Assembly (NCBI GenBank): GCA_030603565.1
Contig: JAUVXM010000003.1
Location: 1,359 to 65,358 of the forward strand
Origin: Candidatus Aminicenantes bacterium
Lineage (GTDB): Bacteria; Acidobacteriota; Aminicenantia; Aminicenantales; Aminicenantaceae
DNA length: 64,000 nucleotides
Direction: 5' to 3'
The position numbers were made by a program, and so were the translations under genes. Within the stretch, counting starts at the first letter, position 1; each line of letters starts with the position of its first letter. The notes below the pieces were generated by a model, which was not told where the DNA came from, searched no databases, and was given only the letters and a program-made list of their open reading frames with translations. Positions 20,435 to 45,522 of this stretch are shown here, one piece after another.

Positions 20435-20537
20435 TTAATAGGAACACCCATTATATTTCTGTTTACCATTGGCATTGCATCTCAACTTTCCCTTTCCAGC
20501 ACTTCCTGCTAGAATAAAATCTCATCGCTTCGCTCCG

Positions 20538-21010: not shown

Positions 21011-21038
21011 TTGACAATTTTGTTTTTCATGGTATACT
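21011..21038 (+). promoter_or_regulatory. Sigma-70-like promoter for the AAA ATPase gene
   Basis: TTGACA - 16 nt - TATACT, ending about 5 nt before the ORF. Confidence 0.4.
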
Positions 21039-21044
21039 TTAGGT

Positions 21045-24245: not shown

Positions 24246-24333
24246 TGATCTTGAAAGCCAGATCTTTGGCCAAGGAGATTTCGAATCTTACATTGACGGC
24301 GTCTGAACAGGGACGTTTGAGGCCCAGCTCGAC

Positions 24334-24669: not shown

Positions 24670-24744
24670 TCCAGGCTGCTCAGGGACTGACTTAATCTCA
24701 GGGAGAATCCATAATATGGACAAACCGGTAAATTTTACGGAATA

Positions 24745-24774
24745 ATTGATATTTTGGAATAACTTTTGTTATAA
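24745..24774 (+). promoter_or_regulatory. Sigma-70-like promoter upstream of the GntR gene
   Basis: TTGATA - 18 nt - TATAAT. Confidence 0.35.
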
Positions 24775-24804
24775 TATAAATTTATAAACGTCAGGGTTGC
24801 AAAA

Positions 24805-25785: not shown

Positions 25786-25890
25786 AGAGACCGTCAGCCC
25801 TAACAGGACATCGCCGGGCAAGGGAGCTCAACATCATCCGATAATAATTGGGGGACCACATAATTAAAGGATATCTCTCCCAGGAATCCA

Positions 25891-26583: not shown

Positions 26584-27143
26584 ATCGCCTCAAAACCGAG
26601 CTTGGTCAAACCGGTCAGATTCGGGACCAGAGAACCTCCGGCGAAGGCATTGCTGTAATGATGGTTAAATTGACAGATCCGCAGTCCCAGCTCATAAAAA
26701 ACATCCATCATTTCCAGGTCCTCGGAAATGGATTCCAGGCTTTGAAATTGCAGGAAAACAGCGATCTTCCCGTTCTTGTAGGCTTGCTTTATCTGGCTGC
26801 CCCGGGTAGCAAGAAAGAGTCCATCCTGGTTATCCCTTAATAATCGATTGGCTTTAACGATCGACTTCAGAGTAGGAACAAGACTGCGGATAAATTTCCC
26901 ATCCACGATATCACCAGCGGAAACATCCCAAATTAAACCGCTTAAGCCGGATTTCGCAAGGTCGCCTTTACGGGCGCCAAAAAAAGTCAGCCCATCAAAA
27001 TACAGGGGATGGGGAGGCTCTGCATTCCTGGCCGCTGAAAACCTCGATCCATTCAACATTAAGGCCGCCCCAGCTGCAGCTTTGGCGCTTCCGAATATAA
27101 ACTCTCTTCGTTTCATATTCTTTTTCTCCTTAAATTTAAGCAT
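26580..27143 (-). pseudogene. N-terminal fragment of a TAT-secreted membrane-dipeptidase (peptidase M19)-like gene, abutting the D-aminoacylase pseudogene
   Basis: MKRREFIFGSAKAAAGAAL (twin-arginine signal); LGLRICQFNHHYSN resembles the M19 GVRxLTLTHN block; only about 150 mature residues. Its stop overlaps the next reading frame by 4 nt. Confidence 0.45.
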
Positions 27144-27307
27144 TTCCGCCGGATTTTTTGCCCGGATATAAATATATTACAGCTTGACAAATTCCAGCCT
27201 CCTGATAATATGATTATATATATAACCATATGTTTAAGTAAATGATACAGTCATCATTAAAAAAATTCAAGTGTTAAAACGGCCCTAGGGGCTAAAGGAG
27301 GCATTTT

Positions 27308-28528
27308 ATGCAAAAAAATCCAGCGAAAAAACCTATTCCGACTTTACTACTTTTTATCAGCCTGGTCTTATCCTGCGTTTATGTCAATGCTGGAACAGAA
27401 ACGCCCAAAGAATTCCAACAGATCATGACAAAATTTAAAACCTTTTATGAAAAATCTTTAAAAAAACACAGTATTGTCGGCAGTTCCTTTATGTTTATTT
27501 ATGACAACCGAGTCCTGGCCCGGGAGGATTACGGGCTGGCCAATAAGGAACTTGACCGCCCGGTTGACAAAGACACCATCTTTCACTGGGCTTCAATAAC
27601 AAAAACCTTTTGCGGCATCGCTATAATGCAGCTGCGTGACCGGGGACTTTTAAAGTTGGATGATCCTATCATCAAGTACATCCCTGAACTCAGAAATGTC
27701 CACAATCCCTTCGGGAACATGAGTGAGATCACTATAAGGCATCTGATGAGCCACAGTTCCGGATTCCGGGGCTCATCCTGGCCCTGGAAAAGCAAGGCCT
27801 GGCACCCGCATGAACCTTTGCATTGGGAGCAACTGGTCGCCATGATCCCTTATACTGAGATCCATTTCAAACCGGGCAGCAAGTGGAGTTACTCCAATCC
27901 CGGCATAATTTTTCTGGGCAGAGTGGTGGAACTGCTAACCACCGATGACTGGGAAGTCTATATCGATAAAAACATTTTTAAGCCTCTCAAAATGTACCAC
28001 AGCTATTTCGACACTACCCCTTATTATCTGATGAAAGATAAAAGCCAAAGCTACTGGATCCGGAAAGGAAAGCTTGTCCCCGCAATCCCTGATGTCAATA
28101 CCGGCATCACTGTTGCAAACGGCGGCTTGAAATGCCCTTTTGATGACTTTTTTAAATACATCAATTTTCTTATGGGAGACGCAACCAAAACTGATATTTA
28201 TGACCAGGTACTAAAAAGATCCTCTCTGGAAGAAATGTTCCAGGCTCAGATCGAAATCGCCCGGTTCGAGGCTGATTTCCCAGGAGAAAACCGCCGGGAT
28301 TCAATGGGCCTGACATTCTTTCTTGAGGACAACTACAATATGAGTTTTGTCTGTCACAGCGGCGGGCAAAACGCTTACGTGACCCATTTTTATCTTAATA
28401 CCAAGGACCGTACGGCCTATGTGGTGGGATTCAATACAACAGGACGTGACAAGGAACAAAGCACCCGTGTTCTGGACCGGGAGATAAAAGAATTCCTTTT
28501 CCGGAACGTCTTCCCTCTTTTTAATTAA
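27308..28528 (+). CDS. Secreted serine hydrolase of the beta-lactamase/PBP4-like family
   Basis: Signal peptide; HWASITKTF (SxxK active-site motif); AAAGGAGG RBS. Confidence 0.8.
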   Translation: MQKNPAKKPIPTLLLFISLVLSCVYVNAGTETPKEFQQIMTKFKTFYEKSLKKHSIVGSSFMFIYDNRVLAREDYGLANKELDRPVDKDTIFHWASITKTFCGIAIMQLRDRGLLKLDDPIIKYIPELRNVHNPFGNMSEITIRHLMSHSSGFRGSSWPWKSKAWHPHEPLHWEQLVAMIPYTEIHFKPGSKWSYSNPGIIFLGRVVELLTTDDWEVYIDKNIFKPLKMYHSYFDTTPYYLMKDKSQSYWIRKGKLVPAIPDVNTGITVANGGLKCPFDDFFKYINFLMGDATKTDIYDQVLKRSSLEEMFQAQIEIARFEADFPGENRRDSMGLTFFLEDNYNMSFVCHSGGQNAYVTHFYLNTKDRTAYVVGFNTTGRDKEQSTRVLDREIKEFLFRNVFPLFN

Positions 28529-28546
28529 TCGAATAATCTTCTAAGG

Positions 28547-28586
28547 AAAAAAAGGCGGCTTTAAACGAAGCCGCCTTTTTTTATGT
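28547..28586. terminator. Bidirectional rho-independent terminator
   Basis: aaaaaaaGGCGGCTTtaaacgAAGCCGCCttttttt between convergent genes. Confidence 0.6.
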
Positions 28587-28596
28587 AGATAAGAAT

Positions 28597-30350
28597 TTAG
28601 AAAACAATTCGACATCCCAGCATAGCGATCCGAGGTGCTTGGATGCCCATAACCTGGTCGAGTTCATAATAAGGATTGCCGACCTGAGAATACAAGCTGG
28701 TAGTCCCATTAAGATTCAGCACATTGTAAACTTCTGCAAAAAAGCTCAACTTTACCTGCTTGATATTGAAATCTTTGGCGATACGCACGTCCCAATAATG
28801 AGTAAAAGGCGTCCGGCGCTTATCGGGGGCCTCCGCTGGAAAACTGGTCATGCCTTGATTGAGACGCGTCTGAAAATAATAACCATAGGGATAACCCGAT
28901 CTGCCATTATAGGCCGTGCTAAGGACAAAACCTAGAGGCGCCATATAGATTCCCTGGAACTTTATGACATGGGCGTGGTCTCCGCTTAAAAGTCCATAGT
29001 TGTTGATGGTGTAATTGGGATCGTTCCAGGGTCCGGTTGCCTTCATACTGCTCGATGTGCTGGTGGTACCTTTAAGCTGACTGTATGTGTAGCTCAGGCG
29101 AAACTGAAAGTTGTGCGACATGCGTTTTGTGAGCTCAAAAATTAGCGCCCGGTATGATCTTTCTGCGCGGGGATCATTATTATAGTAGTCTACCGGATCC
29201 GGAGAGTTCATGTTCCAGTTGTAAACAGTCATGGCTTCTCCGGTCAGCGGGTTGGTCACCTGGATCGGATTATACCATTCTTCAGTACGAGCACTGTCTA
29301 TGATAGTGATAAAGTCTTTGAACTGCCGGTCGACAAAATTCAGCTTGATCAAAAAATCTTTACCGATGTTACGCTCGACCGAGACAAACACCTCGTTCAC
29401 ATAGGGTCGCTTCAAATCTGAATCGATTTCAAAAGCATAGGGGGACGAAGAGAACAGCGGATAAAACTGTCCCGGGCCCAATATGTAGTACATGTTCATA
29501 GTAGAGCTATTGGGATTGAGTCCATAGAACCAGGTCCACATCATGGTGGCATAACGTGAAAAACTCAATTTTATCCCGGATTTTCCATCACCGAAGGGAT
29601 CGATCCCCAGGGCGATCCGCGGTTCAAGGGTTTTCCAATCAGCGATGGGCAGTTTGATTGTCTGCTGGTGTTGAGGCGGAGTATAAGCATCGATATAGTT
29701 AAAACGAAATCCAATGTTAAGATTGATGAAACGATTGATTCGCCCAGGAATCCTGTGCGAAAACAGCGAACTGATTATAGGGATCAACATTGGTGTCCAT
29801 CTCCGGAGGATCGAAACTGATGGACATATAAGGAACTCCGTTCATAGTGTAATACATGCCCATCCCGTATTCATCCGGGAAATAATTAGCGGCATTACGA
29901 GACTCTCCGCGCTCATATTCGATCCCGGCCTTCAGTTCATGGTCGCCTGCCATATCATCGATAAAACGGGTGATATTGACTTTAGCCTGCCAGCGGAGCC
30001 GTTCCTGTAAACAGTCATTGCTACTGCCCGGATCGGTCTCATCCACAACCGTCCCGGCCATGATAAAGATACCCTGATGTAAACTCTACCGGTTCACCGC
30101 TGCGAATCAATTCCTTCTGTGCGGGAAGGTTATCTATGTTATCCTCAAGATAAAGCCACTCCAAATGAACCCGGCCCTTGATCTGTTTTAATTTTCTGAC
30201 ATGGATAATCCCTTCTTCGCCGCCGGTCACAGGTTGCTGTGCGGATGCAGGAAAGAAAAATCCGAAGCCGAGCAAAATAAATATAAAAAAACCGCAGCGG
30301 AAAAACAACTTCTGTTGATACTTTTCATCTGCATATGACATTTCCTGCAT
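28597..30350 (-). pseudogene. Oar-like TonB-dependent outer-membrane barrel gene, frameshifted into three pieces and internally deleted
   Basis: Pieces 30039..30350 (signal peptide plus N-domain), 29717..30061 and 28597..29790 (barrel C-terminus ending ...RIVF). Paralogues 32499..35564 and 35839..38853 are about 1020-1040 aa, whereas this locus spans only about 580 codons. Confidence 0.6.
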
Positions 30351-30567
30351 AAATATTATAAGTCAGTCATTTCCTTATGTCCAGCAACGGTGATTACATT
30401 TTTCCCTTTTTCGGAAACGAACATGAAATTTAAAAACCAATCACTCGGTAACTGGCAACGATACGCACAGCTTATGATTTAACGGCAGGTGGTTCTTACG
30501 CCAGACGCGATGAATTTGAGGATGTCCCGGAATCCCTCTATAACTCGTTATTTGTGGGCTCACTTAA

Positions 30568-30582
30568 CCTGAATAATTCACG
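30568..30582. repeat. Solo TIR-end motif of the MITE family
   Basis: cctgaataattcacg. Confidence 0.35.
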
Positions 30583-30706
30583 CAGCAGGAGTGTGCCCTG
30601 CAGAAGTAACTTTTTGTGCACCTAAGCAATACCACAATATATTTAGTGGATAAGTTTATGTATTTGACAATCAATCATGGCAGTGTTAAGGTTTTTTTCA
30701 CAGATC

Positions 30707-32122
30707 ATGGAAACATACGGCTGGCTTTCGATCCTAACTCCGGTCCTAGCGATTTTTATGGCTATCAGGACCAAACAGGTCTATATATCTTTAACCCTGG
30801 GGATTTGGCTGGGCTGGACCATTATCCACGGCGGCAATCCTCTAACCGGGTTTATCCAGACCGTCAATGTTCTGGTCGCTGTATTCGAGGATGCTGACAA
30901 TACCCGGGTAATTCTGTTCAGTGCTATGATCGGCGCCATTATAACTCTCACCCAATACTCCGGCGGGATGCAGGGTTTTGTCGACTGGATCACCGGTAAA
31001 GGGCTGGTCAAAACCCGCAAGTCAGCCGGGCTGCTGGCCTGGTTCCTGGGCGTCATAATATTTATTGAATCCAGTATCTGTGTCCTGGTGGCCGGTGCTG
31101 TTTCCCGGCCTATATTTGATAAACTGAAGATCTCACGCGAGAAGCTCAGCTATATCCTGGATTCGACCTCGGCCCCAAAATGCATCATCATTCCCCTTAA
31201 TGCATGGGGAGCCTTTATCCTGAGCCTCCTGGCATCCCAGGGGATAGATAATCCCATCCGGGTTTTTGTCGCCTCCATTCCATTTAACTTTTACGCCTTC
31301 CTGGCTCTGGGCCTGGTGCTTTTCGTCGTATTGACAGGGAAAGATTTCGGTCCCATGAAAAAAGCGGAAAAGCGGGTTTGGGAAGAAGGAAAGCTGCTGC
31401 GCGACGGAGCCGAACCATTGGTCGCGGATGAAGTTGTCAAAGTCAAAGCAAAAGCTGGAATACCGCACCGGGCGATCAACATGATCCTGCCGGTGGGCAT
31501 CATGGTTGTAACGATGCCGGTTGTGCTGATGATTACCGGCCGGGGGAATCTGATGAAAGGCTCAGGCTCAATTTCCGTACTCTGGGCTGTGATCTGCGGA
31601 GTGGGTGTCGCAGCCGTTGCTTACCGTCTGCAGGGCATAATGAAAACCAAAGAGATCATGGATTACTTTATGAAAGGGGTAGGCGGTCTGGTTCCGCTGG
31701 CTAGTTTAATGATCCTGGCATTTGCCATCGGAGACACCTGTGAAGCGCTCGGGACCGGTCCCTTTGTTGCCCAGGCGGCTAAATCCACTCTCCCGTCCGG
31801 AATTATTCCTGCTGTCCTGTTTCTTATCTCCAGCTTCATCGCCTTTTCGACCGGTACCTCCTGGGGCACATTTGCCATTATGATCCCCATAGCCGTTCCA
31901 ATGATCAATGTTATTGGACTACATCCTGGCTTGATGATCGCGTCCGTATTGGGGGGAGGCGTATTTGGAGATCACTGCTCACCTATATCAGACACCACTA
32001 TCATTTCATCAATGGCCTCTGCTACCGATCACATCGATCATGTACGCACCCAGCTCCCGTATGCCCTTGCAGCCGGGGTAGCAGCTTTACTATTATTTCT
32101 TATTTTTGGATTTATACTCTGA
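30707..32122 (+). CDS. NhaC-family Na+/H+ antiporter
   Basis: Multi-pass membrane protein, about 470 aa, with NhaC-like hydrophobic blocks; likely start METYGW at 30707 (ORF-track start 30677). Confidence 0.75.
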   Translation: METYGWLSILTPVLAIFMAIRTKQVYISLTLGIWLGWTIIHGGNPLTGFIQTVNVLVAVFEDADNTRVILFSAMIGAIITLTQYSGGMQGFVDWITGKGLVKTRKSAGLLAWFLGVIIFIESSICVLVAGAVSRPIFDKLKISREKLSYILDSTSAPKCIIIPLNAWGAFILSLLASQGIDNPIRVFVASIPFNFYAFLALGLVLFVVLTGKDFGPMKKAEKRVWEEGKLLRDGAEPLVADEVVKVKAKAGIPHRAINMILPVGIMVVTMPVVLMITGRGNLMKGSGSISVLWAVICGVGVAAVAYRLQGIMKTKEIMDYFMKGVGGLVPLASLMILAFAIGDTCEALGTGPFVAQAAKSTLPSGIIPAVLFLISSFIAFSTGTSWGTFAIMIPIAVPMINVIGLHPGLMIASVLGGGVFGDHCSPISDTTIISSMASATDHIDHVRTQLPYALAAGVAALLLFLIFGFIL

Positions 32123-32142
32123 ATATAAAACATAAAAAGGCC

Positions 32143-32206
32143 GGGTATGTCCGGATTGGGAAAAAACGCCTTACTCTATATATATCCTTTTGAATCCCAT
32201 AAGCAC
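32143..32206. repeat. About 62-bp relic duplicating the 3' end of the S9 peptidase gene (17884..17945)
   Basis: ccggattgggaaaaaacgccttactctatatatatccttttgaatcccataagcaccgctgt versus ccggattgggaaaaaacgccgtactctacatatatccttttgaatcccatggcccccgctgt. Confidence 0.55.
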
Positions 32207-32498
32207 CGCTGTTTGTAATTATTAACCGGGCCAAGGAAGGGAGTCCAAAGGGGAAGAAGAAAATCCATAATTTTGGATTTTTTCATAATAATTAAATATT
32301 GTCAGCTCTCTATATTATTGAGTCTACTGCGGTTATATAAAAGCTTGACATTGGCACATTTTTTGCGGTATCTTTAAAATAAGATTCAAGAAAAGAGCAT
32401 AAAAAAACACTTATGGAATTAAAAAACAGGGGGTGATGCACCCGAGTAATTATCAAGGGAAACTTAATACCACAAAAAATTAAAACTAAGGAGGGAAG

Positions 32499-35400
32499 AT
32501 GAAGATTAAAATTTTCAAAGTTTTTTTGATCCTGTTTCTGGCTTTCGGGCTAACATCAGTCAGCTTAGCCCAGGGAAGACAGACAGGATTAATAAGCGGA
32601 ACAATCCTTGACTCTGAAGGAAACGGTCTCCCCGGAGCAACCATAACTCTCACAGGGACCAAATTACTAGGACACAGGTCTTATATGACCACAGACTCAG
32701 GAAAATTCCGTTTTCCGGCTCTTTCTCCCGGTTCCGGTTATGAACTTAGGGTAGAAATGCCGGGATTTAATACTCACGTGAGAAAAGGCCTTATAGTAAG
32801 TATCGGGAGCACTACTGAAGTCAATATTGAAATGGAAATGTCTGCGGTCGAAGAAGAGATCACGGTTACGGCCGAATCACCTGTTGTGGATGTAAAAACT
32901 TCTAAATCCAGTATCAATTACACCTCGGATTTTATTGCAAGTATCCCCATGAACCGCGACCTCTACGACATCCAGAACTCTATCCCCGGCGCTATTTCTG
33001 AAGGCAGGGCTTACCGGCGGACCTCATCCATCCTGGGGGGAACTGTAAGAAGTACTCTCTATGCCCTGGACGGAGTTCCTATGAACGACCCAGCCACTTT
33101 TTACTCCATGGCAAACATCAATGTCGATGTTTATGAAGAGATCGAGTTCGGAGTGGGTGCTTTACCAGCCGAAGTCGGCCAAACCGACTCTGTATATGTA
33201 AACATCGTTACCAAAAGCGGCGGAAATAAATTTTCCGGCGGAGTCACTACCTATTACACAGGCTCCAGCTTTGCTGAAAATCTTTTCACCGATGAAGAGA
33301 TCGAAGCCCTGGATGTTGACGACCCGCAGAGTTTCAGTGATTACAAAGATCTATCCTTAAACTTCGGCGGCCCGCTCATCAAAGACCGTCTCTGGTTTTT
33401 CCTGAACGCCCGGCGCCTGATCTGGGAAAAAGTAAACCAGTATACCCCGGAAAAACGGATGGAAGAGCTGGGCATCAGCAGCCCTCACTATGACCTGGAG
33501 CACGAGGAATGGCTGGGCTTCGGCAAACTGACATTCCAGTTCACAGACAAGATCCGCTATATGGGCATGCTGCATTACAACCACCTCTATGAGCCCATCT
33601 ATACCAATCGGGTAGGCTCCAGTTATTCATGGGATTACACCGGTGTCTGGAACCATGAGAACACCTACACCACCACTCACCAGCTCAACTGGGTCTTTGA
33701 CCAGAACACTTTCCTGGATATCCGCGGCACCTATATCAACCGTTATTTCCCCATCAATGTCCAGCCAGGGCTTGAGGGGAATTACACCTATTATGACAGG
33801 GCTGAGAGGGTCTACTGGGGACGCACCTCTTATGATGACGAATATGTGCGTAAAAAAATGCTGGGCTCAGCCTCAATGACCCACTTCAAAGACGATTTTT
33901 TAGGTGCAAGCCATGAATTCAAAGCAGGAGTGGAGGTCGAACAGACCGAATACCACAGAGACTGGTTCCGCGAAAACCCATATTATTCCTACTGGCGTGA
34001 TTGGGCAGGAGGAAATCCCTATTACTATTCCACCTCAGGAAAAAGGGGACGTTTAAGAATCCGCTACTGTCCGCCTGAAAAAGGGATGTGGGATGTGGTC
34101 GACAATACCCGCCGCTACTCCGCCTTTGCCCAGGACAGCCTTTCAACCGGCAAGCTGGCTGTTAATGTCGGCCTTCGCTTAGACCACTCCTTCCAATTCG
34201 AACCGGAACAGACCCGCCCCCAGCTTCGTTATGATCACTCACCGGAGCTTCAAAATCCAGCCTTAGCGACTAATGAGCTTTTAGAAGCACTGATTGACCA
34301 GTACCATAATGAGATTGGGCCGATCTCTCCCTTTGACGCTTTGACCACCCCTTACAAAAAAATCGTTACATTTACTACTCTTTCTCCCCGTATCGGCTTT
34401 GTGTACGACCTTTTCGGCAACGGCAAAACCGCCCTGAAACTCCACTTTTCCCGCTATTACGAACCGGTCTGGTCAGCTAAATACAATGGAGCACAGATCT
34501 TTGGGGCTGGCTCTGTCAGCTATTACTGGTACGATTACAATGGCAACAAATTAATGGACCTTCCCCCAGATGATGGGTACACTCTCCCCAGCACACCCGA
34601 ACAGGATCCCAACTACGAGTATTATAAGAGTGACCTTAAACCTCCCTATATGCACGAATATATGGCGGGGATCGAACATGAACTAGTAAAAAACTTCAGG
34701 GTAGGACTGCAATTTGTCGTAAAGCAGAATAAAAATATCGTTGAAGATATTGATGTTAATAACGGCTACGACGCCACAGCCACAGATGAAAACGGCCTCA
34801 TCTGGCTTCCATATGACGTTATCGATCCCGGCTGGGACGGTGAATTCGGCACCTCTGACGATGAACCCCTTACTATTTACGGACTTAGGGAAGACCGGCC
34901 CGTAAAGACCTGGATGGGAACAAATCCCCCGGAAGCAGAGCGAAAATACTGGGCAGCTATCCTTACTTTTGATAAGCGGATGTCAAACAGTAAATGGACA
35001 CTTAAAGGGTCAATCCTCTACAGCTCGTTTAAAGGAAACGCCTCCGCTCAATACGGTGCTACCGAAGGCGAATCCTCCATGTTCGACAATCCCAATACTC
35101 TGATAAACTCCTACGGTCCGCTTTACTTTGACCGCCCGTTGCAGATCAAGATCATGGGTTCTGTTATCCTACCCTACGATTTCATACTCAGCGGTTATTT
35201 CCAACACCGTTCCGGAAGTGCCTGGAACAGAACTCTTGAGCGGGTCTATTTCCCCTCTAGCATGGATGTGTATGAAAGTTATGTCAGTGTAAATGCCGAA
35301 CCGCTTGGTTCCCGCAGAAATCACCCCTATACAAATATTGACCTTAGAGTCGAAAAAAGCATTCTTTTCGGTGGTATCGGTAAACTTAACCTCTATGTCG

Positions 35401-35564
35401 ATATATTCAACCTTGCAGGTCGCAGCGGAGTAAACCTCTATGAGAATCCCAATGGCAGGCTCAAATATTACAATCTTGACTACACACTCTACAGCCTCTA
35501 CGGTACCGTATCCAGTATCTATGGAGTACGTTCCTTTAGAATCGGAGCCAGATTCAGCTTCTAA
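32499..35564 (+). CDS. Oar-like TonB-dependent receptor family outer-membrane protein (carboxypeptidase-regulatory-like N-domain plus beta-barrel)
   Basis: Signal peptide, GTILDSEGNGLPGATITLTG (CarboxypepD_reg-like), 1021 aa, C-terminal aromatic residue (..RFSF). Confidence 0.8.
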   Translation: MKIKIFKVFLILFLAFGLTSVSLAQGRQTGLISGTILDSEGNGLPGATITLTGTKLLGHRSYMTTDSGKFRFPALSPGSGYELRVEMPGFNTHVRKGLIVSIGSTTEVNIEMEMSAVEEEITVTAESPVVDVKTSKSSINYTSDFIASIPMNRDLYDIQNSIPGAISEGRAYRRTSSILGGTVRSTLYALDGVPMNDPATFYSMANINVDVYEEIEFGVGALPAEVGQTDSVYVNIVTKSGGNKFSGGVTTYYTGSSFAENLFTDEEIEALDVDDPQSFSDYKDLSLNFGGPLIKDRLWFFLNARRLIWEKVNQYTPEKRMEELGISSPHYDLEHEEWLGFGKLTFQFTDKIRYMGMLHYNHLYEPIYTNRVGSSYSWDYTGVWNHENTYTTTHQLNWVFDQNTFLDIRGTYINRYFPINVQPGLEGNYTYYDRAERVYWGRTSYDDEYVRKKMLGSASMTHFKDDFLGASHEFKAGVEVEQTEYHRDWFRENPYYSYWRDWAGGNPYYYSTSGKRGRLRIRYCPPEKGMWDVVDNTRRYSAFAQDSLSTGKLAVNVGLRLDHSFQFEPEQTRPQLRYDHSPELQNPALATNELLEALIDQYHNEIGPISPFDALTTPYKKIVTFTTLSPRIGFVYDLFGNGKTALKLHFSRYYEPVWSAKYNGAQIFGAGSVSYYWYDYNGNKLMDLPPDDGYTLPSTPEQDPNYEYYKSDLKPPYMHEYMAGIEHELVKNFRVGLQFVVKQNKNIVEDIDVNNGYDATATDENGLIWLPYDVIDPGWDGEFGTSDDEPLTIYGLREDRPVKTWMGTNPPEAERKYWAAILTFDKRMSNSKWTLKGSILYSSFKGNASAQYGATEGESSMFDNPNTLINSYGPLYFDRPLQIKIMGSVILPYDFILSGYFQHRSGSAWNRTLERVYFPSSMDVYESYVSVNAEPLGSRRNHPYTNIDLRVEKSILFGGIGKLNLYVDIFNLAGRSGVNLYENPNGRLKYYNLDYTLYSLYGTVSSIYGVRSFRIGARFSF

Positions 35565-35578
35565 CTATTAATCAGAAA

Positions 35579-35612
35579 AGAGGGGAGGCGAGAATGCCTC
35601 CCCTTTTTTTTT
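35579..35612 (+). terminator. Rho-independent terminator
   Basis: AGGGGAGGCgagaatGCCTCCCCTttttttttt. Confidence 0.6.
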
Positions 35613-35838
35613 AATTAAATTTTCAGGAGTTACCCCCCTATTAATAACTTATAATAAACCCAATTAGAAAACCATTTTCTCCGGATTAGCTATAAAAATA
35701 ATACTGTATCCGAGCGGATTATTGCTTATTGCACTTAAACTTAGAAAAAAAGGGGAACTTCAGATAATTAAATTAAATTACATATTATCAGGCAGTGCTA
35801 AAAATGTTATTATAGGCGGGATAGAAAAGGAGTTGAAA

Positions 35839-38800
35839 TTGCTAAAAGACCTAAAAAAAATACAAATCGTCACTATATTGATCTTTATTTCAACGGTTTT
35901 CCTCAATGCCCAGGTCAAATCGACCGGTTCCGTATCCGGAAAAGTCATTGATACAGAAGCCAAAGCTCTCGCCAATGTAAGTGTTACTATCAAAGGGCCT
36001 GCTCTGCAGGTGCAGTTATTCGTAGCCACTGAACAGGACGGCATCTTTAGGTTCCCCCAACTCCCGCCTGGAAAAGGATACACACTTCACATAGAACTTC
36101 CTGGATATAAGACGGATATCCGGAAAGGATTCGATATCGAAGCAGGAAAAAAAATATTTCAAACCATTACAATGGAAACCAGCTCTACAGGGGAAAAAGT
36201 TATATCACCCGCGCATAACCCTTCTCTAAATTTAAGGACATCAAAAACTTCTCTTAATTTTTCAAAAGATCTGATCCGCAATATCCCCATGTCACGTGAC
36301 CTGCATGAAATCATAAAGGCAATCCCTGGTTCAGTATCTGACGAAAAAAACCTTAACCGCACTTCCAGTATCTCTGGCGGCACCTTATCAGGCAATCAAT
36401 ACTATTTAGAGGGAATATCTTTCAACGACCCGATCACTATGTGTCCCATAACCAATATCAATATAGATGTTTACGAAGAAGTGTTGATGGGAATCGCAGG
36501 CCATCAAGCTGATACTGAAATAGCAGATGGGGGTTATATCAATATCATAGCCAAGTCCGGCGGAAACGACTTTCAAGGTAATACCTTATTTGAATATTTT
36601 AACCAGGACATGCAGAAAAGTCTTTTAAGTAAAGAGGAGCTGGAAGCAGTCGCTTTGGAAAAACCTGCCGGCATAAACTCACAAAAAGACCTGTCACTTT
36701 CCTTGGGAGGAGCATTTTGGAAAGGCTTGGCTTGGTATTTCCTAAATGCCCGCTATTTTAACTGGACCCGGGATTTTAACCACATTAACTGGGATCAAAC
36801 TCAGGCAACTGACGAAAAATACATGGAAATAGATGAAGCCCCCCATTCCGAGTACAATCTCTTTGGAAAATTGACAACTAACCCGATGCAGAAGCTCCGC
36901 ATTACTGCTACTTATAACCTGACTTCTATCTCTGAAAATTTTTATGCCGACCAAATAGAAAATTATCTTGACAGCTCCGCTGTTAGCAAACGGCGTAACG
37001 AAATGAGCCATTTAGTAATAGGAAATGTCTATTATGTTATGCAGAAAAATTTTTTCTTGGATGCTCGGGTTGGATACATCTACCGCATGTTACCTCTTCG
37101 TTACGGTGAGAATGCCTTAGCCGGAGAACCACGCTTATATGACAGATATTATGATGTTTACACAAATAACCCACCCTATCAAGATATCCGGACCCAGCAA
37201 AGAATCAACCCAGGTATGACCGGTTCCTTTTTTGCCGATAATATCCTAGGGAGCAGCCATGAATTGAGGTTCGGGGCCGAATATGAGTGGAATGAGAACA
37301 GGTCGAACTTTTGGAGAGAAAACCCCTTTTATATTCATTATTACCGAGGCAATATCTATGCCTACCCTGACTCAAAAACTTCCAATCGAACCCAGCTTTA
37401 TGCCTATACCTGCGGACCGGCAGAAGGAGCATCTATTCAGAAAACCGTAAAATCCCGTATCAGCATTTTTGCCCAGGATAACCTTACGATCGGCGGACGC
37501 CTGACTTTTAATCTGGGATTTCGAGCTAATTACAGCAGCGGAAATTTTCCTGGACAAATGCAATACGCATCCGCTGATACATATGGGATCTTCGACATCC
37601 TCCCCGGATTAGGCTTACAATATAAAGGTTTCTCTACCCAAGCGATCAATGCTTTAAACTGGATAAACATATCTCCCCGTATCGGGTTTGCTTTTGACAT
37701 TTTAAATGACGGCAAAACCCTTATCAAAGGCTCTTTCGCCCGCAACTTTGAATACCTTATGCCCAGTCATTTCAATCAAGTAAACTCAGTATCCCCCCGC
37801 TTGAGTTCCTGGTATTGGACGGATATAAATTACGACCAGATTCCGGACGTTAATGATTCCTATACAGCGCTTTACCTTGCTGATGACCCTGAAGCATATA
37901 GCCTGGCAGATAAACTGGATACCAAGGCCTCGGCTCCTTTTACTGACGAATACACCCTGGGTATTGAAAGAGAAATAGCGCGTGATATCAGGGCCGGGAT
38001 AACCTTCATCTATAAACACAAACAGAATATATTAGCAGGTGTCAATGATTATGGATATGGCGCAGACGAAGCCTGGAAAGGATACAGCCCTGACAGCCCC
38101 TTATGGGAAAAGTTTGAATTCATGGATCCGGGTGAAGACGGTCTTTTTGGTACTAATGACGACTATTCCGCTTTTTGCTATGCTGAATTAGCCGAATCAC
38201 CCGGCAGCCGGCACCTTTATTTTACTAACCTGGAAACAGGTTTCCGTAAATATACCGCCCTCCAGTTTGTACTCAATAAACGAATGTCCCATAACTGGCA
38301 GTTGCTGACTTCGATCATCTGGAGCAAGACCTGGGGTAATATTGGAAACACAATGACTTACAACACTCCTAATGACTTACTATATCCAGAAGGCCGGTTG
38401 GATTACGACCGACCGCTTAATATAAAAATCCAGAGTTCTGTTATCCTTCCTTATGACTTTGTCTTAAGCGCCTATTTTAATCACCGCTCCGGCTCACCTT
38501 GGAACAGGACAGTGACAGTCTATATCCCGGAAGACCCAAAATATTGGGACCCAGGAGCATGCTACACAATCCCAACTGAAGAAAAAGGCGCCAGGAGAAC
38601 TCCAGCGTTAACCTATTTAGACCTTAGAATCGAGAAAAGCTTCGCTCTGGGCAAAGCTACATCTATAAGTGGATATATCGACATATTGAATGCTTTGGGA
38701 AAAAACGGCTATCAGGTTGTCTCAAACTCAGGCGGCTTCCTTGACTACCGGGACCCCGATAATCCGACCTATGAAAGGTATGTGGATTGCAGCAATATTT

Positions 38801-38853
38801 ACGGCCCTTACACAAGCAGAATCATCAAGTTCGGCCTGAGCTTTAATTTTTAA
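35839..38853 (+). CDS. Oar-like TonB-dependent receptor family outer-membrane protein, second tandem paralogue
   Basis: Likely TTG start 35839 (AAGGAG 6 nt upstream) giving signal peptide MLKDLKKIQIVTILIFISTVFLNAQ (ORF-track start 35722). GSVSGKVIDTEAKALANVSVTIKG N-domain; ends ..LSFNF. Confidence 0.75.
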   Translation: MLKDLKKIQIVTILIFISTVFLNAQVKSTGSVSGKVIDTEAKALANVSVTIKGPALQVQLFVATEQDGIFRFPQLPPGKGYTLHIELPGYKTDIRKGFDIEAGKKIFQTITMETSSTGEKVISPAHNPSLNLRTSKTSLNFSKDLIRNIPMSRDLHEIIKAIPGSVSDEKNLNRTSSISGGTLSGNQYYLEGISFNDPITMCPITNINIDVYEEVLMGIAGHQADTEIADGGYINIIAKSGGNDFQGNTLFEYFNQDMQKSLLSKEELEAVALEKPAGINSQKDLSLSLGGAFWKGLAWYFLNARYFNWTRDFNHINWDQTQATDEKYMEIDEAPHSEYNLFGKLTTNPMQKLRITATYNLTSISENFYADQIENYLDSSAVSKRRNEMSHLVIGNVYYVMQKNFFLDARVGYIYRMLPLRYGENALAGEPRLYDRYYDVYTNNPPYQDIRTQQRINPGMTGSFFADNILGSSHELRFGAEYEWNENRSNFWRENPFYIHYYRGNIYAYPDSKTSNRTQLYAYTCGPAEGASIQKTVKSRISIFAQDNLTIGGRLTFNLGFRANYSSGNFPGQMQYASADTYGIFDILPGLGLQYKGFSTQAINALNWINISPRIGFAFDILNDGKTLIKGSFARNFEYLMPSHFNQVNSVSPRLSSWYWTDINYDQIPDVNDSYTALYLADDPEAYSLADKLDTKASAPFTDEYTLGIEREIARDIRAGITFIYKHKQNILAGVNDYGYGADEAWKGYSPDSPLWEKFEFMDPGEDGLFGTNDDYSAFCYAELAESPGSRHLYFTNLETGFRKYTALQFVLNKRMSHNWQLLTSIIWSKTWGNIGNTMTYNTPNDLLYPEGRLDYDRPLNIKIQSSVILPYDFVLSAYFNHRSGSPWNRTVTVYIPEDPKYWDPGACYTIPTEEKGARRTPALTYLDLRIEKSFALGKATSISGYIDILNALGKNGYQVVSNSGGFLDYRDPDNPTYERYVDCSNIYGPYTSRIIKFGLSFNF

Positions 38854-39029
38854 TTTATTTTAACCATGTCAAAAAAGATACTCTCAGATGAACTTTATAT
38901 CCACAGGGAATGGACTCTGGACCTTCCCCCCGGCAGTAAATATATCTATTTGAGTGTAACGGATAACAATAAAGGGAAAAGGCTGAGGAAACTTTTAGAA
39001 ATCAGGTAATCGGCTTGAGAGCTGAACTG

Positions 39030-40019
39030 CTATTTTATCATCTCTTCCAGCTTGGGAATCAGGTTGTTTATAGTCGGGGTCAGAGGATCATCCGGAGCAA
39101 GTTCAATAAATTTTTTAAAATTTTCAATCGCCATTTTATAATCGGCCTGATTTAAATACGCATATCCCATCTGCCTGTAAGGGGGAGCCCAGTCGCTTTT
39201 AATCTCTGTGGCTAGAGTGAAATATTCAATACCTTTAGCTGTCTCCCCTTGTTTAAAAAATATCTCACCGATGTTAAATGCTAATGTCTCATCTTTCGGG
39301 AATATGCTAATAGCCTTCTGTAGATATCCTGCCGCTTTTTCCAGCTCTCCTTGTTTAATATAGGTTTCGCCAATACCGGACAGAGCGCGAGCCGCTCCCT
39401 CATCTCCGGCCAGTTCGGGTTTCCCCTCCTTGATCTTATCCAGCATCATGTTGTAGGCAGTAATTGCCTTTTCATATTCGCCAATTTCTTTATAGCAGTT
39501 GCCGATATTAATGTTTACCTGATAGATCTCTGGATTTTTTTCTAAGAACTCTTCAAATTTTAATACAGCCTTAGAATATTCTTTCGCTTCAAAAAGCTTG
39601 TTTCCTTCTTCAAAGAGAGCAATTGCCTCTTCATTTCTAATGTCGGGGACGCCAAAATCCTGGACACTGACATTCTGGAGCGTAAAATCGACTGGTGGAT
39701 TTTTTTTTGAAAACTGACTGACTTTCATCTCATGAAAAACCGTTCCATATCCTTCAAATTCCGCTGAAATACGAAAATAGCCTGTTCCTAAACCGGCAAT
39801 AGCCCAGATGCCTTTCTTGTTTGATTTTGATTCAAACTTGGTTCCATATTCAATATGTTCGGCAATTATCTTCACATCCTTCAAAGGATTTCCGGCAGTG
39901 TCTTTAACCGTACCATAGATCCGGCCCCTTCCCCGTCCCTGTTGGGAAAAAGTCCATGAAGTCATACAGATAATCAATAAAAGCAAAAGACCTGATAATA
40001 GGACATTTTTACTCCTCAC
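39030..40019 (-). CDS. Secreted TPR-repeat protein with N-terminal carboxypeptidase-regulatory-like domain
   Basis: Likely GTG start 40019 with GGAGG RBS; signal peptide; IYGTVKDTAGNPLKDVKI; multiple TPR-like repeats. Confidence 0.65.
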   Translation of the reverse strand: MRSKNVLLSGLLLLLIICMTSWTFSQQGRGRGRIYGTVKDTAGNPLKDVKIIAEHIEYGTKFESKSNKKGIWAIAGLGTGYFRISAEFEGYGTVFHEMKVSQFSKKNPPVDFTLQNVSVQDFGVPDIRNEEAIALFEEGNKLFEAKEYSKAVLKFEEFLEKNPEIYQVNINIGNCYKEIGEYEKAITAYNMMLDKIKEGKPELAGDEGAARALSGIGETYIKQGELEKAAGYLQKAISIFPKDETLAFNIGEIFFKQGETAKGIEYFTLATEIKSDWAPPYRQMGYAYLNQADYKMAIENFKKFIELAPDDPLTPTINNLIPKLEEMIK

Positions 40020-40090
40020 AAAAACCTCCAATAATTGTAGTGCTATGTAATATTTTAATTAATACTCGTTTTCTATTCAAGCTTGAGAGC

Positions 40091-41086
40091 CTATTTAAAC
40101 TCAAATCCCAGAACTTTCCGTACAGTTTTATTTCCAGTCGTGTTTTTTAGGGTGGCAAATATTTTATTCCGCCCCTTGCAGAGGAGTTCAACATTTTTTT
40201 CAATAACAAACGGGAGCTCGATCTTGTATTTTATCCCTTTACTTTCCTGCAGCTCCTCCTCTGTAGTTTTCACTTCATACGATTCTTCGTACTCCCAGAT
40301 CTTCTTCTTATCTGTATCCCTTACTTCAAGATAGAGCTCAAGCACTGTTGCCATCTCTCCGTCTTTTTCCTTAAGCCACAGGTGGGAAAAAGGCACTTCT
40401 ATAAATATAATACCCTCCACTCTTTCCCCCCCTACCAGACCGGCTTTGACCTTCCAGTTAAAATTGAAAAATCCTTCCTGGCCTTGAATGGTCTGTTGGG
40501 CCTGACTTTGGGCCTTGCTTAATTGGTGCATATACATAAGATTCGTAGTACGAAGCTGAGTCAGGTTATAGGTCACCAGTCTATAATGTCCGGAACAAGA
40601 GGAATCAACAAATACAACAGGAAAGTTTCCATAATACCAGGTCTCACTGCAATTATAACTTGGATTATTTGTTATCCGGTCCATAGGAGGCCCAAACAGA
40701 ACGTAGATGCGCCCCCGATCAGTAAGCCAACCCGGCCTTCCTTCGCCTATGAAGAGTTCATTCGCCCTTTCAATCCGGTTGTAATATTCCATTTTAAACT
40801 CATTTTCTTCTGTCTGAGGATCCGGGTCGCGCCGGGCCCAGAATTCCTGTTTAAACTCTTCTTTTTCAGCAGCCGGAAGTTCAAGAAACATCTTCCGTTC
40901 TTTAGAGGTAATAATATACCTGACCTTGTCTAACCATTCCGAATTTTCAGGATCCAGCTTTTGCTCCAGGCTGTAATAATGGCAGGAAATCGATAAGATC
41001 AGAAGGAGGCAAAATAGCATCATCAGTCCCGGGATAACCAGCCCCCTTTCCCGAATATATCTATTTGAAAGCAAAAGATGCATCAT
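40091..41086 (-). CDS. GWxTD-domain protein
   Basis: RPGWLTDRGRIYVLFGPP motif; membrane anchor; 4-nt overlap with the upstream gene. Confidence 0.7.
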   Translation of the reverse strand: MMHLLLSNRYIRERGLVIPGLMMLFCLLLILSISCHYYSLEQKLDPENSEWLDKVRYIITSKERKMFLELPAAEKEEFKQEFWARRDPDPQTEENEFKMEYYNRIERANELFIGEGRPGWLTDRGRIYVLFGPPMDRITNNPSYNCSETWYYGNFPVVFVDSSCSGHYRLVTYNLTQLRTTNLMYMHQLSKAQSQAQQTIQGQEGFFNFNWKVKAGLVGGERVEGIIFIEVPFSHLWLKEKDGEMATVLELYLEVRDTDKKKIWEYEESYEVKTTEEELQESKGIKYKIELPFVIEKNVELLCKGRNKIFATLKNTTGNKTVRKVLGFEFK

Positions 41087-43143
41087 TTTTTCTCCTTTAA
41101 AGCTTCCACATTTTTTTTTATTTTAGGCTGGTCTACATTGATCTCAAGCGATTTCATCCAGGCAGTCAATGCCTCCGACATATCCCCCAACTGAAAATAG
41201 CATTCACCGATCGCATTAAGGCAGTTGGTGTTGAGGCCGTGATGGTTCATGGCTTTTTCAAATATCTCAATGGCTTGAGCTAACTCGCTCCGGTACTGAT
41301 AAGCTCTACCCAGGATAAAATATATTTCGAATTTTGGAGGTTCATCCAGGTTTACAAATGGAAGCAAGACAGCTGGAACTTCATCATAGTTTTTTTTCTC
41401 CATATAAACACGAACCAGATTCAGGGCAAATTCAGCATTTTCCGGATTTTTATGGAAAGCGGCCTCCAGTTTGGCCTCAGCAGCTTCAATCTGTCCGGTA
41501 TTAAACAACTGAGAACCAAGGACAAAAGAATAAACCGGGTTTTCAGTTTCGGACAACAGTTTGCTGTAAATCCAGGGACGGGCTATACTTTCCATATAAG
41601 TGACATCAAATTCATCGCTCTCAAAAAGCTTTTCCTGGCTATCCACAATGAGAGAAACCCGGACCCGGTAGTGGGCTGGGGAAAAATTTTTAAGCGAAAA
41701 CTTCTCTACAAAATCCGGAATATTCCTATATTCACTTATCTTTCTGTAAAGACTAAAAAAATCTTCTCCGTCACGGTAAAAATTATATTTTATCACTGCC
41801 TTCTCTTTTTCATCCAGGCTTAGGCCATGAATCTGATACGCCAGCACTATATCATCCTTTCTAAGAAACACACGGTTTGCCTGAAAATACATCTGATAGC
41901 TTCCTGCCTGAAAAGGCCGCAGACGGTTGTTGGCTGGAATATTCCAGTTCATATGGTACCCTAAGAGCAGAGAAGTCATCTGGATCCGATCTTCTTCTCC
42001 GGGAATAAGGAGGGTTCGGTCAAGAGAAGTAAATTCTTTAGATATCTCATTTTTAACCAGTACGGATAAGCGAAATTTGCCTGGAATCAAAGGAAACATA
42101 TCCCGGATACTTAAAGGCCGGCTGCTTACCTTTTTCATTTGTTCCTCTTTAAATTCCAAATGGATAGTCTTATCGAACTGATACACTGTTTTGCCCTCTA
42201 TCGTGGAAACGGTCCCATTTAATTTTAAGGTTGTGTAAAACTTGTCCTGGTACTGGTTTACAGATAGCCTTTCCGGTTCTATGGCGTAATGAACAAAATA
42301 TATTCCCGAAGGATCCTTCAATACCTTTACCAGAGAATCGCAGTCCATATAATTCGCTGTATATTCCACCTCGACCAGGTCCTTATATTCCAGGAATTTC
42401 CTGGCATATCTATCCTCTATTGCTCTAACAGGCGTGGATTCAACCCGGTTTACTAATATATCTGAAGACATGGTAGGCCGGCCGATCCCATCCGAACGAT
42501 CTCCCGGGATCAAAGTCATAGCATAACCAGAAAGCTCGGGTTCAAATTCACGCAACTGGCTATAAGCAGCCATGTAATCCATAGGATCTCCAAGGTAAGA
42601 TGTCAATAGGGCCTGCGGCCCGTCTCCGAGCGGACTATACAATTCATATTCACCCAGACCGCCTTCCTGATAAAATACCAGATTAAACCCGGGGGGAAGC
42701 CCTTTATCAGTCAGCCCCTGGTAAAACCAGACCACTGTCGGATAAACCTGAGTTTTACCCTCAAACCTCTGTATGTCATTTGGAGCGCCAAGAATGATGT
42801 AGATCCTGCCGCGGTCGGTTTTCCAGCCTTTTTTTGGGAGAGCGCGTCCAAAAAATTGATTTGCATAATTTATCCGGCGGTAATGCTCGGTTTTGAACTC
42901 GTTCTCCGGAGTGCTGAGGGTAGGGTCGCGATGTTTCCAGAAGGCTTTAATAAACATATCCCTTTCGCGATCTGTTTTAAGCTGTAAAAAAATCTCATTT
43001 TCCACCGGTGCTATAATATACACGACTTCCTCTTCAAGCCACTTTTTATGATGTTTGGGAAGGTCACCTACTCCAGCTGAAGCATTATATACAAAGGAAA
43101 ATAATACAGCGGCTAATAAATATAATATGAGTCTATTCCTCAC
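41083..43143 (-). CDS. GWxTD-domain protein with C-terminal TPR repeats
   Basis: KKGWKTDRGRIYIILGAP; signal peptide; TPR-like C-terminus (..AYQYRSELAQAIEIFEKA..). Confidence 0.7.
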   Translation of the reverse strand: MRNRLILYLLAAVLFSFVYNASAGVGDLPKHHKKWLEEEVVYIIAPVENEIFLQLKTDRERDMFIKAFWKHRDPTLSTPENEFKTEHYRRINYANQFFGRALPKKGWKTDRGRIYIILGAPNDIQRFEGKTQVYPTVVWFYQGLTDKGLPPGFNLVFYQEGGLGEYELYSPLGDGPQALLTSYLGDPMDYMAAYSQLREFEPELSGYAMTLIPGDRSDGIGRPTMSSDILVNRVESTPVRAIEDRYARKFLEYKDLVEVEYTANYMDCDSLVKVLKDPSGIYFVHYAIEPERLSVNQYQDKFYTTLKLNGTVSTIEGKTVYQFDKTIHLEFKEEQMKKVSSRPLSIRDMFPLIPGKFRLSVLVKNEISKEFTSLDRTLLIPGEEDRIQMTSLLLGYHMNWNIPANNRLRPFQAGSYQMYFQANRVFLRKDDIVLAYQIHGLSLDEKEKAVIKYNFYRDGEDFFSLYRKISEYRNIPDFVEKFSLKNFSPAHYRVRVSLIVDSQEKLFESDEFDVTYMESIARPWIYSKLLSETENPVYSFVLGSQLFNTGQIEAAEAKLEAAFHKNPENAEFALNLVRVYMEKKNYDEVPAVLLPFVNLDEPPKFEIYFILGRAYQYRSELAQAIEIFEKAMNHHGLNTNCLNAIGECYFQLGDMSEALTAWMKSLEINVDQPKIKKNVEALKEKK

Positions 43144-44376: not shown

Positions 44377-45522
44377 ATGAAACTTCTGAGCCAGGAACAA
44401 ATCGAAACTCTGGCAAAATTTAAATGTAAGGATTTATTTACCACTTCTTTTTTTCTCGACACCAGTAAAAACAGGCTGACAAAAAAAGAAATCCAACTGT
44501 CTTTAAAAAACCTTCTGTTTAACAGCAGGAAAAAGCTTAAAGAGATGTCGCTATCCAAAGCCAAAAAAGAATCTTTGGTACAGGATCTGGAAAAAATTGA
44601 GAAATACTGTCAGCAAAATCTTTCCGGGTCAAACTTCGTGGGCCTGGCTATTTTTTCTGGCAGTGAATGCGATCTGTGGAAGGTTTTTAACTTGGTTAAA
44701 TCCCCCAGAAATATGATTATTTTTGACCATAATCCCTATATCCGACCGCTATCAGCGATCCTGACTGAATACCATCGTATTTGTGTGCTGACTTTCGACC
44801 GAAAGGAAGCCAGATGGTATAATATTTATATGGGAGAGATCTTTGAACTGGGATCTCTTCAGAGTGATGTCCCCAGCCGCATTAAAGAAGGAGGCTGGCA
44901 AGGATACAGATCAAAACGCATTGAAAGACATATGACTTCGCGCCTCCGTGATTTTTTTAAGAAAACCGCCAAGGAAACATTCACTCTAATGAAAAAACAC
45001 AATTTTGAGTGGCTCTTTCTTGGATGTAAAGACGAATACTATGCAGAGTTGGAGCCATTACTTCATCCCTACCTAAAAGAAAAAATAAAAGCACGCATCA
45101 AAGCAAATCCCGGAGATTCAGCAAATATAATTCTCCAGAAAACTTTAAAGATAAAAGATAAATTAAAAAAGCAAGAAAAAGAAAAAATCGTACAAAATTT
45201 CATCTCTGAACATGAAAAAGACGGACTGGCTGTCTCCGGGCTGGAAAACACTCTAAGCAAACTAAACCGGGGTGGAGTTCAAACCCTTCTAGTAACACGC
45301 CATTTCTCCCAACCGGGAAAATTTTGCCCTAAATGCCACTTCCTGTTCACCAATAAATCCGAATGTCCATCCTGCAGGGTAAAAACCAAACCCTTAATAG
45401 ACGTTATTGATGAAGCCGTAGAAGCAGCTTTGAACTCAAGCAGTGATGTGAAACATATAAATCCGCCTTCCCCCCTGGACAAATACGGCGGCATCGGAGC
45501 ATTTCTGCGTTATAAGATATAA
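44377..45522 (+). CDS. Bacterial eRF1/Pelota-like (baeRF-type) protein with GGWQ loop and C-terminal zinc ribbon
   Basis: Central-domain block ICVLTFDRKEARWY followed by VPSRIKEGGWQGYRSKRIERHMTSRLRDFFKKTAKE, which parallels eRF1 KKHGRGGQSALRFARLR..RHNYVRKVAE. C-terminal CPKCHFLF...CPSC. RBS AAGGAGG. Promoter-like TTGACA..TATAAT at about 44268. Confidence 0.6.
   Translation: MKLLSQEQIETLAKFKCKDLFTTSFFLDTSKNRLTKKEIQLSLKNLLFNSRKKLKEMSLSKAKKESLVQDLEKIEKYCQQNLSGSNFVGLAIFSGSECDLWKVFNLVKSPRNMIIFDHNPYIRPLSAILTEYHRICVLTFDRKEARWYNIYMGEIFELGSLQSDVPSRIKEGGWQGYRSKRIERHMTSRLRDFFKKTAKETFTLMKKHNFEWLFLGCKDEYYAELEPLLHPYLKEKIKARIKANPGDSANIILQKTLKIKDKLKKQEKEKIVQNFISEHEKDGLAVSGLENTLSKLNRGGVQTLLVTRHFSQPGKFCPKCHFLFTNKSECPSCRVKTKPLIDVIDEAVEAALNSSSDVKHINPPSPLDKYGGIGAFLRYKI

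Follow-up and report, generated by a model that had tools for sequence, protein, structure and literature searches.

The window analysed here is a stretch of 64,000 nucleotides from contig JAUVXM010000003.1 of a Candidatus Aminicenantes bacterium. It contains three co-oriented open reading frames (ORFs) on the minus strand, which we refer to as genes A, B and C, and these converge on two genes coding for Oar-like outer-membrane barrel proteins, Oar1 and Oar2. A and B each code for a protein with a GWxTD domain, and their nearest named homologues are likewise found in Candidatus Aminicenantes. The locus had been predicted from its sequence to encode an uncharacterised envelope-associated complex of GWxTD, tetratricopeptide repeat (TPR) and outer-membrane proteins, and we have compared it with about 170 other GWxTD loci.

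The A-B-C genes and the convergent Oar-like genes

Gene A (41083-43143, minus strand) codes for a protein of 686 amino acids that contains GWKTDRGRIYIILGAP, with the motif GWKTD inside the GWxTD domain. The protein matches both models of the GWxTD family, TIGR04514 (117.2 bits, E 4e-34) and PF20094 (55.1 bits), above the respective cut-offs of 28 and 26.9 bits, and has additional matches to TPR families. A Sec signal peptide (ending ..NASA, before G) is followed by the GWxTD domain (residues ~35-142), by a segment covering residues 93-263 and, at the C-terminal end, by TPR repeats (~535-686), while the AlphaFold2 model places two beta-sandwich domains at residues ~265-385 and ~390-530. The predicted local distance difference test score (pLDDT) of this model is above 90 at residues 265-686. 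Residues 93-263 (window positions 42355-42865) are strongly conserved and yet have a pLDDT below 50, with 66 aligned sequences. As this segment holds the GWxTD core motif and the conserved stretch LIPGxxSxxxGRPxxSSD..YAxKFLEYKD, one might speculate that it may fold only upon binding of a partner. A fold search with the A protein gave generic TPR matches and nothing else, its sequence matches in the PDB run through the TPR region alone, and 4766 homologues were recovered in a sequence search.

Gene B (40091-41086, minus strand) codes for a lipoprotein of 331 amino acids that contains GWLTDRGRIYVLFGPP and the motif GWLTD, and also scores above both family cut-offs (TIGR04514, 109.1 bits, E 1e-31; PF20094, 61.7 bits). 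The TGA stop codon of A and the ATG start codon of B share the sequence ATGA at 41083-41086, and AAGGAG is located 8 nt upstream of the B start. B is thus translationally coupled to A through this overlap, and the predicted arrangement of two adjacent, overlapping GWxTD genes, the larger of which carries TPR repeats, is borne out. The B protein is classified as a lipoprotein because its lipobox, LSIS-C35, fits the PROSITE rule and because Cys35 is at least 90% conserved in an alignment of 69 B homologues, in which Cys146 and Cys164 form an invariant pair. The lipobox pattern is matched by 51 of 70 short GWxTD ORFs. In the AlphaFold2 model of B (mean pLDDT 79.8), the GWxTD domain (residues ~44-170) consists of five helices and a three-stranded sheet, followed by a disordered linker (174-205) and a C-terminal beta-sandwich (207-331). 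The beta-sandwich has fold matches in the PDB and resembles the Ig-like and carbohydrate-associated domains of glycoside hydrolase family 2 (GH2) enzymes. Neither B nor a 69-sequence B profile matched any PDB sequence, even at E <= 10.

Gene C (39030-40031, minus strand) codes for a secreted protein of ~330 amino acids with a signal peptide, a CarboxypepD_reg domain (PF13620; residues 38-119, 38.5 bits, cut-off 32.3) and TPR repeats (~130-330; TPR_2, 93.6 bits). Judged from the sequence, its true start is probably the GTG codon at 40019, which lies 5 nt after GGAGG, rather than the TTG codon at 40031. The original prediction named C a TPR lipoprotein. The secretion and the domain content were recovered, but the lipid anchor was rejected, because the sole N-terminal cysteine is preceded by Ile-Ile and fails the lipobox rule, and because it is not conserved in 24 homologues, whose signal peptides finish in ..AQA, before GRG. 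C scores below the equivalog cut-offs of YbgF (52 bits, cut-off 90.1), BamD (29.3 bits, cut-off 81.4) and LapB (29.4 bits, cut-off 430), and the single match to the PADLOC defence-system models is a generic TPR hit in C (E 1e-5).

The two convergent genes on the plus strand, Oar1 (32499-35564) and Oar2 (35722-38853), share the N-terminal domain of C, as had been proposed: both contain CarboxypepD_reg (PF13620; 62.1 bits in Oar1 and 49.1 bits in Oar2) and OMP_b-brl_4 (PF25183; 100.4 and 90.9 bits, respectively) above cut-off, at 33.6% identity to each other. The Plug model reached 20.6 bits in Oar1, below its cut-off of 23.9, and gave no match in Oar2. A C-terminal phenylalanine is present in 38 of 39 Oar-like proteins. 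Since orthologues of Oar2 measure 1004-1006 amino acids, the true start of this gene is probably located ~37-39 codons downstream of 35722, near position 35830. The presumed pseudogene at 28597-30350 is indeed a truncated and frameshifted Oar-like remnant, which matches only residues 451-1021 of Oar1, in two frames. Genes for TonB, ExbB or ExbD were not seen near the Oar genes.

Conservation of the locus and distribution of the GWxTD domain

A profile built from the two GWxTD domains of the window recovered 11,409 cluster representatives (50% identity) at E <= 1e-3; under the stricter limit of E <= 1e-10 the number was 5,889. The named sources all belong to the Acidobacteriota, namely Aminicenantes, Pyrinomonadaceae and other Blastocatellia, Terriglobia and Candidatus Acidoferrales, apart from a few labels of metagenome-assembled genomes (MAGs) that look mis-binned. 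The motifs FWxxRDP, ENEF and GWxTDRGR do not vary between the paralogues, whose alignment keeps the residues G, W, T, D, R, G and R unchanged throughout, and the motifs are nearly invariant across paralogues and classes. The function of the domain had been described as unknown, in agreement with our literature search, which returned no relevant paper on it. Likewise, no solved structure of the GWxTD domain was found by sequence, profile or fold search. One further architecture, seen in a protein of 1402 amino acids (P0286), combines GWxTD with Big_7 and von Willebrand factor A domains.

Two scans provided the loci for comparison. The first, limited to one genome per species and queried with the GWxTD domain alignment, yielded 80 loci that were annotated with purpose-built profiles, and the second, a metagenome scan for the Terriglobia GWxTD gene, yielded 80 further loci, 68 of which have at least 400 nt downstream of the gene. 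A B-type gene comes after an A-type gene in 36 loci, 30 of which keep the 4-nt overlap as either ATGA or GTGA. An additional B-like lipoprotein gene of ~350 amino acids, B', is often inserted after B, and C follows B or B' in 24 loci. An Oar-like gene converges on C in at least 12 loci, and in more distant Aminicenantes loci (L002, L009 and L013) this convergent neighbour is of the Oar1 type. Among the other arrangements, about 15 loci have an Oar-like gene converging on a solitary B-type gene, with an 11-12 nt overlap of the 3' ends, and in three (L058, L065 and L078) a GWxTD gene lies after an Oar gene in the same orientation. A repeated pairing of GWxTD genes with TPR and outer-membrane partners, as anticipated, is therefore seen in several arrangements.

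To quantify the linkage, we used a CarboxypepD_reg profile iterated from gene C's own domain. The domain is encoded by 51 of the 165 immediate neighbours of GWxTD genes (31%), by 19 of 247 genes at a distance of 2-3 and by 4 of 348 genes (1.1%) at a distance of 4 or more, which corresponds to a ~27-fold enrichment over the distant flanks of the same loci. The linkage occurs in at least five different gene arrangements. It is also found in a different class: in an Acidobacteriaceae MAG (L081), a GWxTD gene of 593 amino acids overlaps a CarboxypepD_reg gene of 577 amino acids, and the same two-gene pair is present in the cultured Koribacter versatilis Ellin345 (Acid345_3322 and the next gene; L091, CP000360.1, ~3.93 Mb) and, at 66% identity and with unrelated flanking genes, in L092. 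Among the Terriglobia metagenome loci (L093-L172), a GWxTD gene of ~580 amino acids is followed by a partner gene of ~570 amino acids in 65 of the 68 loci with room for it, on the same strand and at a spacing of -56 to +47 nt. The GWxTD ORF is fragmented in two of the three exceptions, and the third has just 412 nt downstream. The conserved linkage on which the original prediction depended was thus found both in these loci and in the census of the first scan.

For the Terriglobia pairs, more than 8000 homologues are on record. The Terriglobia GWxTD proteins have ordinary signal peptides and no lipobox. The partner protein has a signal peptide and a CarboxypepD_reg head followed by ~440 residues without a Plug match, and all 58 full-length copies end in G-V-A-F-[TS]-F. 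Because this C-terminal strand resembles that of the Phe-ending Oar-like proteins, the partner is probably an outer-membrane barrel. The genes flanking the Terriglobia pair are unrelated to one another and do not include degradative enzymes.

A different context of the GWxTD domain is provided by fusions to BlaR1-type membrane proteases. In 13 of the top 150 cluster representatives, a Peptidase_M56 (BlaR1) domain is followed by two or three tandem C-terminal GWxTD domains; the M56-GWxTD proteins are P0241-P0247, P0252, P0253, P0263, P0269, P0284, P0297 and P0383, and P0242 ends in addition in TonB_C. The corresponding loci are L083-L089 and, additional to the 13, L056, and their named sources are Candidatus Acidoferrales. 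In every such locus with upstream sequence, a Penicillinase_R (BlaI) gene overlaps the start of the fusion gene, and in L086 two CarboxypepD_reg genes are located directly upstream of blaI and the fusion gene. The C-terminal domain of BlaR1-type proteins is extracytoplasmic, which suggests that GWxTD works as a periplasmic sensing or docking module. We considered whether the tandem domains represent an A-type and a B-type copy, and hence an ancient heterodimer, but rejected this since nearly all of them score higher with the A-type profile. As both fusion domains are A-like, the paired arrangement has arisen more than once, separately from the A/B pair.

The close relatives L003 and L090, which are 92-94% identical to the window, lack C. 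In these, A-B is joined straight to Oar2, with the 3' ends of B and Oar2 overlapping by 11 nt. Missing are a 1.24-kb segment with C (window positions 38854-40093) and a segment of about 17.7 kb (18042-35768), which contains Oar1, the Oar remnant, a Na+/H+ antiporter gene, a beta-lactamase-family gene and others. A simple deletion of C between the GCTCTCAAGC repeats that follow the stop codons of B and C was rejected, since the junction does not fit; the C-less junction shows a TTAAA microhomology joining the stop regions of B and Oar2. Downstream of Oar2, the close relatives encode an S9 peptidase, an SDF symporter and an M14 carboxypeptidase, the window copies of which lie at 12612-18014, with the 17.7-kb segment separating Oar2 from the S9 peptidase gene. 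A Sulfatase-TPR gene, for a Sulfatase-family protein with C-terminal TPR repeats (~715-920 amino acids), lies at most two genes away from a GWxTD gene in 17 Aminicenantes loci (among them L002, L011, L015, L016, L033, L040, L044-L048, L053-L055, L059 and L065), and the two copies in the window (2-1543 and 61446-63761) are 16 and 29 genes away.

The surroundings of the operon have several further features. A dispersed repeat, TTTATGAATAGTTCAGG, has 17 matches in the window at <=3 mismatches, compared to 0.27 expected (positions 1645, 10519, 12584, 20418, 24659, 43161, 43224, 43277, 43532, 43920, 45524, 45652, 51253, 52511, 57199, 57328 and 58239). The 1.2-kb gap upstream of A holds five of these copies, including one that ends up 18 nt ahead of its start codon. 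The copies comprise both half-sites and full palindromes (TGAATAGTTCAGG..CCTGxxTATTCA), the latter forming hairpins of 12-13 bp (z about -3.4). Rfam has no entry for the repeat, which could be an element resembling repetitive extragenic palindromic (REP) sequences or an operator. Promoter and terminator scans around the locus gave no excess over the shuffled expectation, and an Rfam scan of the intergenic region upstream of A found a tRNA only. The GWxTD operon is separated from an operon for a resistance-nodulation-division (RND) efflux system by a gene for a bacterial eRF1-like protein (44377-45522, plus strand; baeRF_family10, 76 bits), which has the same placement in L002 (6699-7844), a genome that is only 62% identical; the protein scores far under the cut-offs of ribosome-hibernation-factor models. 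Lastly, radical SAM and class-V aminotransferase genes are found near GWxTD genes at three otherwise different loci (L002, 8403-9731 and 17440-18708; L086, 63-2666; L088, 6368-7516), possibly by coincidence.

A putative periplasmic partner of outer-membrane barrels

Based on the gene linkage, we tentatively propose, at somewhat less than an even chance, that GWxTD serves recognition in the periplasm, as a module whose partners are those outer-membrane barrels that bear a CarboxypepD_reg N-terminal extension (NTE). In this reading, A would be soluble in the periplasm and B lipid-anchored and produced in a fixed ratio with A through the translational coupling. Recognition may be carried out by the GWxTD domains of A and B acting as a pair, and scaffolding would fall to the TPR repeats of C and to the beta-sandwiches and TPR repeats of A. 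The most likely target would be the CarboxypepD_reg NTE of the Oar-type barrels and of C; alternatively, the pair could recognise a conserved envelope ligand that is handled by these barrels. In either case, the A-B-C module would assist or regulate the neighbouring Oar-like transporters, and in other Acidobacteriota the GWxTD domains fused to BlaR1-type proteases could pass the same signal on to BlaI repressors. The prediction of an envelope-associated complex is supported in so far as all products carry export signals and the linkage is conserved, and we infer the physical complex itself from these observations. The CarboxypepD_reg NTE of Oar and SusC proteins lies in the periplasm and has no known function (PMC6434023, PMC7782687). 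PopC secretion through Oar in Myxococcus xanthus does not require it (PMC6434023), but deletion of the NTE from one SusC protein abolished levan-dependent growth (PMC7782687).

Several observations weigh against this proposal. The loci are phylogenetically related, so that the enrichment counts do not represent independent events. In five Pyrinomonadaceae loci (L063, L069, L072, L080 and L082), GWxTD pairs (~538 and 535 amino acids) are located directly downstream of tatA-tatC with no CarboxypepD_reg neighbour, and most M56-GWxTD loci have no such neighbour either. C is dispensable at the locus, as seen in L003 and L090, and the A-B-C and Oar genes, being convergent in the window, are not co-transcribed. 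The domain has no fold match in the PDB, which leaves room for an enzymatic role. Finally, the peptidase genes flanking Oar2 in the relatives and the Sulfatase-TPR neighbours fit nutrient uptake equally well.

These last points lead to an explanation by substrate capture, which we regard as unlikely. Here, the GWxTD proteins would bind nutrients for a polymer-utilisation locus, and B, perhaps with A, would pass peptides or sulfated glycans to the Oar-type transporter, similar to SusD, SusE and SusF serving SusC; the BlaR1-GWxTD fusions would then sense the same imported substrate. In addition to the S9 peptidase, SDF symporter and M14 carboxypeptidase genes after Oar2 and the 17 loci with a nearby Sulfatase-TPR gene, this is consistent with B being a lipoprotein with a beta-sandwich like those of GH2 enzymes, and with the presence of a CarboxypepD_reg-like NTE in SusC (PMC7782687). 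However, A, B and C have no match to any SusD-like family, their genes are mostly convergent with the barrel gene instead of being co-transcribed downstream of it, and the Terriglobia pair stands in unrelated flanks that lack degradative enzymes. Moreover, the BlaR1 fusions put the GWxTD domain in the periplasm and not on the cell surface. Due to the near-invariance of the GWxTD motifs, which is unexpected for a binder of diverse nutrients, we favour a conserved target over varied ones.

The nearly universal Terriglobia operon, in which the GWxTD gene precedes a probable barrel gene, could also be read as a barrel with its passenger, the GWxTD protein then serving the adjacent barrel as cargo, plug or partner displayed on the surface, by analogy to LptD-LptE, Slam-dependent surface lipoproteins, two-partner secretion or Oar-dependent PopC secretion. 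That the Terriglobia partner has no Plug match in the ~440 residues after its NTE, and that the B-type proteins are lipoproteins, would agree with such a role. We nevertheless consider it improbable, as a tandem GWxTD domain on an inner-membrane BlaR1 protease paired with BlaI fits periplasmic sensing only, A has TPR repeats, which are common in periplasmic scaffold proteins, and the Terriglobia GWxTD proteins carry ordinary signal peptides and not lipoboxes.

Similarly poor prospects attach to the idea that A-B-C works on its own as a periplasmic TPR complex in general envelope maintenance, in the manner of CpoB/YbgF, BamD or LapB, and is adjacent to Oar genes merely by inherited synteny: the convergent orientation in the window, the variable presence of C, its weak TPR similarity to YbgF, BamD and LapB, and the abundance of Oar-like genes (two intact and one remnant in 64 kb) point that way, but the ~27-fold CarboxypepD_reg enrichment over distant flanks, the five or more gene arrangements, the recurrence of the linkage in a different class with another barrel type and varied flanks, and scores for the envelope-maintenance families far under the curated cut-offs all argue against it.

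We return to the proposed periplasmic recognition module that would partner NTE-bearing barrels. In a more far-reaching version, which we consider doubtful, GWxTD would be a dedicated periplasmic NTE receptor for Oar- and SusC-class barrels, and would provide a phylum-wide coupling across the envelope that is either free-standing or wired to BlaR1/BlaI, resembling STN-FecR signalling but built from unrelated parts. The NTE marks the Oar and SusC classes of TonB-dependent transporters, and GWxTD is a testable candidate for contacting it. Acidobacteriota are abundant in soils and sediments and encode many NTE-bearing barrels. Should the link prove real, outer-membrane transport would gain a further layer of accessory and signalling functions; otherwise, A-B-C would still stand as a widespread envelope operon of unknown function. 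The presence of the pair in Koribacter versatilis Ellin345 makes a cultured organism available for such work.

Comparison with known systems

The individual parts of the locus are catalogued domains. A and B lie far above both cut-offs of the GWxTD family (TIGR04514/PF20094) and carry the motif from which the family takes its name. This family is a sequence definition only, and the operon, the barrel linkage and the BlaR1 fusions appear in no family description that we found. The module as a whole, comprising coupled GWxTD genes, a partner with CarboxypepD_reg, recurrent linkage to barrels and fusions to BlaR1, is without a characterised counterpart.

Among the systems to which it can be compared, Oar of Myxococcus xanthus (PMC6434023) shares with the window genes the signal peptide, the CarboxypepD_reg (PF13620) NTE and a large, Phe-ending barrel. 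In contrast, Plug is only weakly detected in Oar1 and undetected in Oar2, and the Myxococcus protein has no described GWxTD partner. The nutrient importer SusC-SusD of Bacteroidota (PMC7782687) likewise combines a barrel with a periplasmic CarboxypepD_reg-like NTE, an adjacent lipoprotein and helical-repeat partners of the TPR type. However, A, B and C do not match the SusD family, the partner genes described here are usually convergent and do not form one operon with the barrel gene, and the conserved element is a novel domain of helices and beta-strands and not a TPR lid.

The GWxTD fusions in relatives are similar to BlaR1/BlaI (MecR1/MecI), as tandem GWxTD domains replace the extracytoplasmic sensor of M56 proteases that are paired with BlaI. 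The sensor of true BlaR1 is a penicillin-binding fold and is unrelated to GWxTD. Unlike BlaR1/BlaI and FecA-FecR, the window genes themselves include no M56 protease, repressor, STN domain or sigma/anti-sigma pair. Nevertheless, should GWxTD read the NTE of a barrel, the logic of the system would mirror that of FecA and FecR, in which the STN domain of the barrel contacts FecR.

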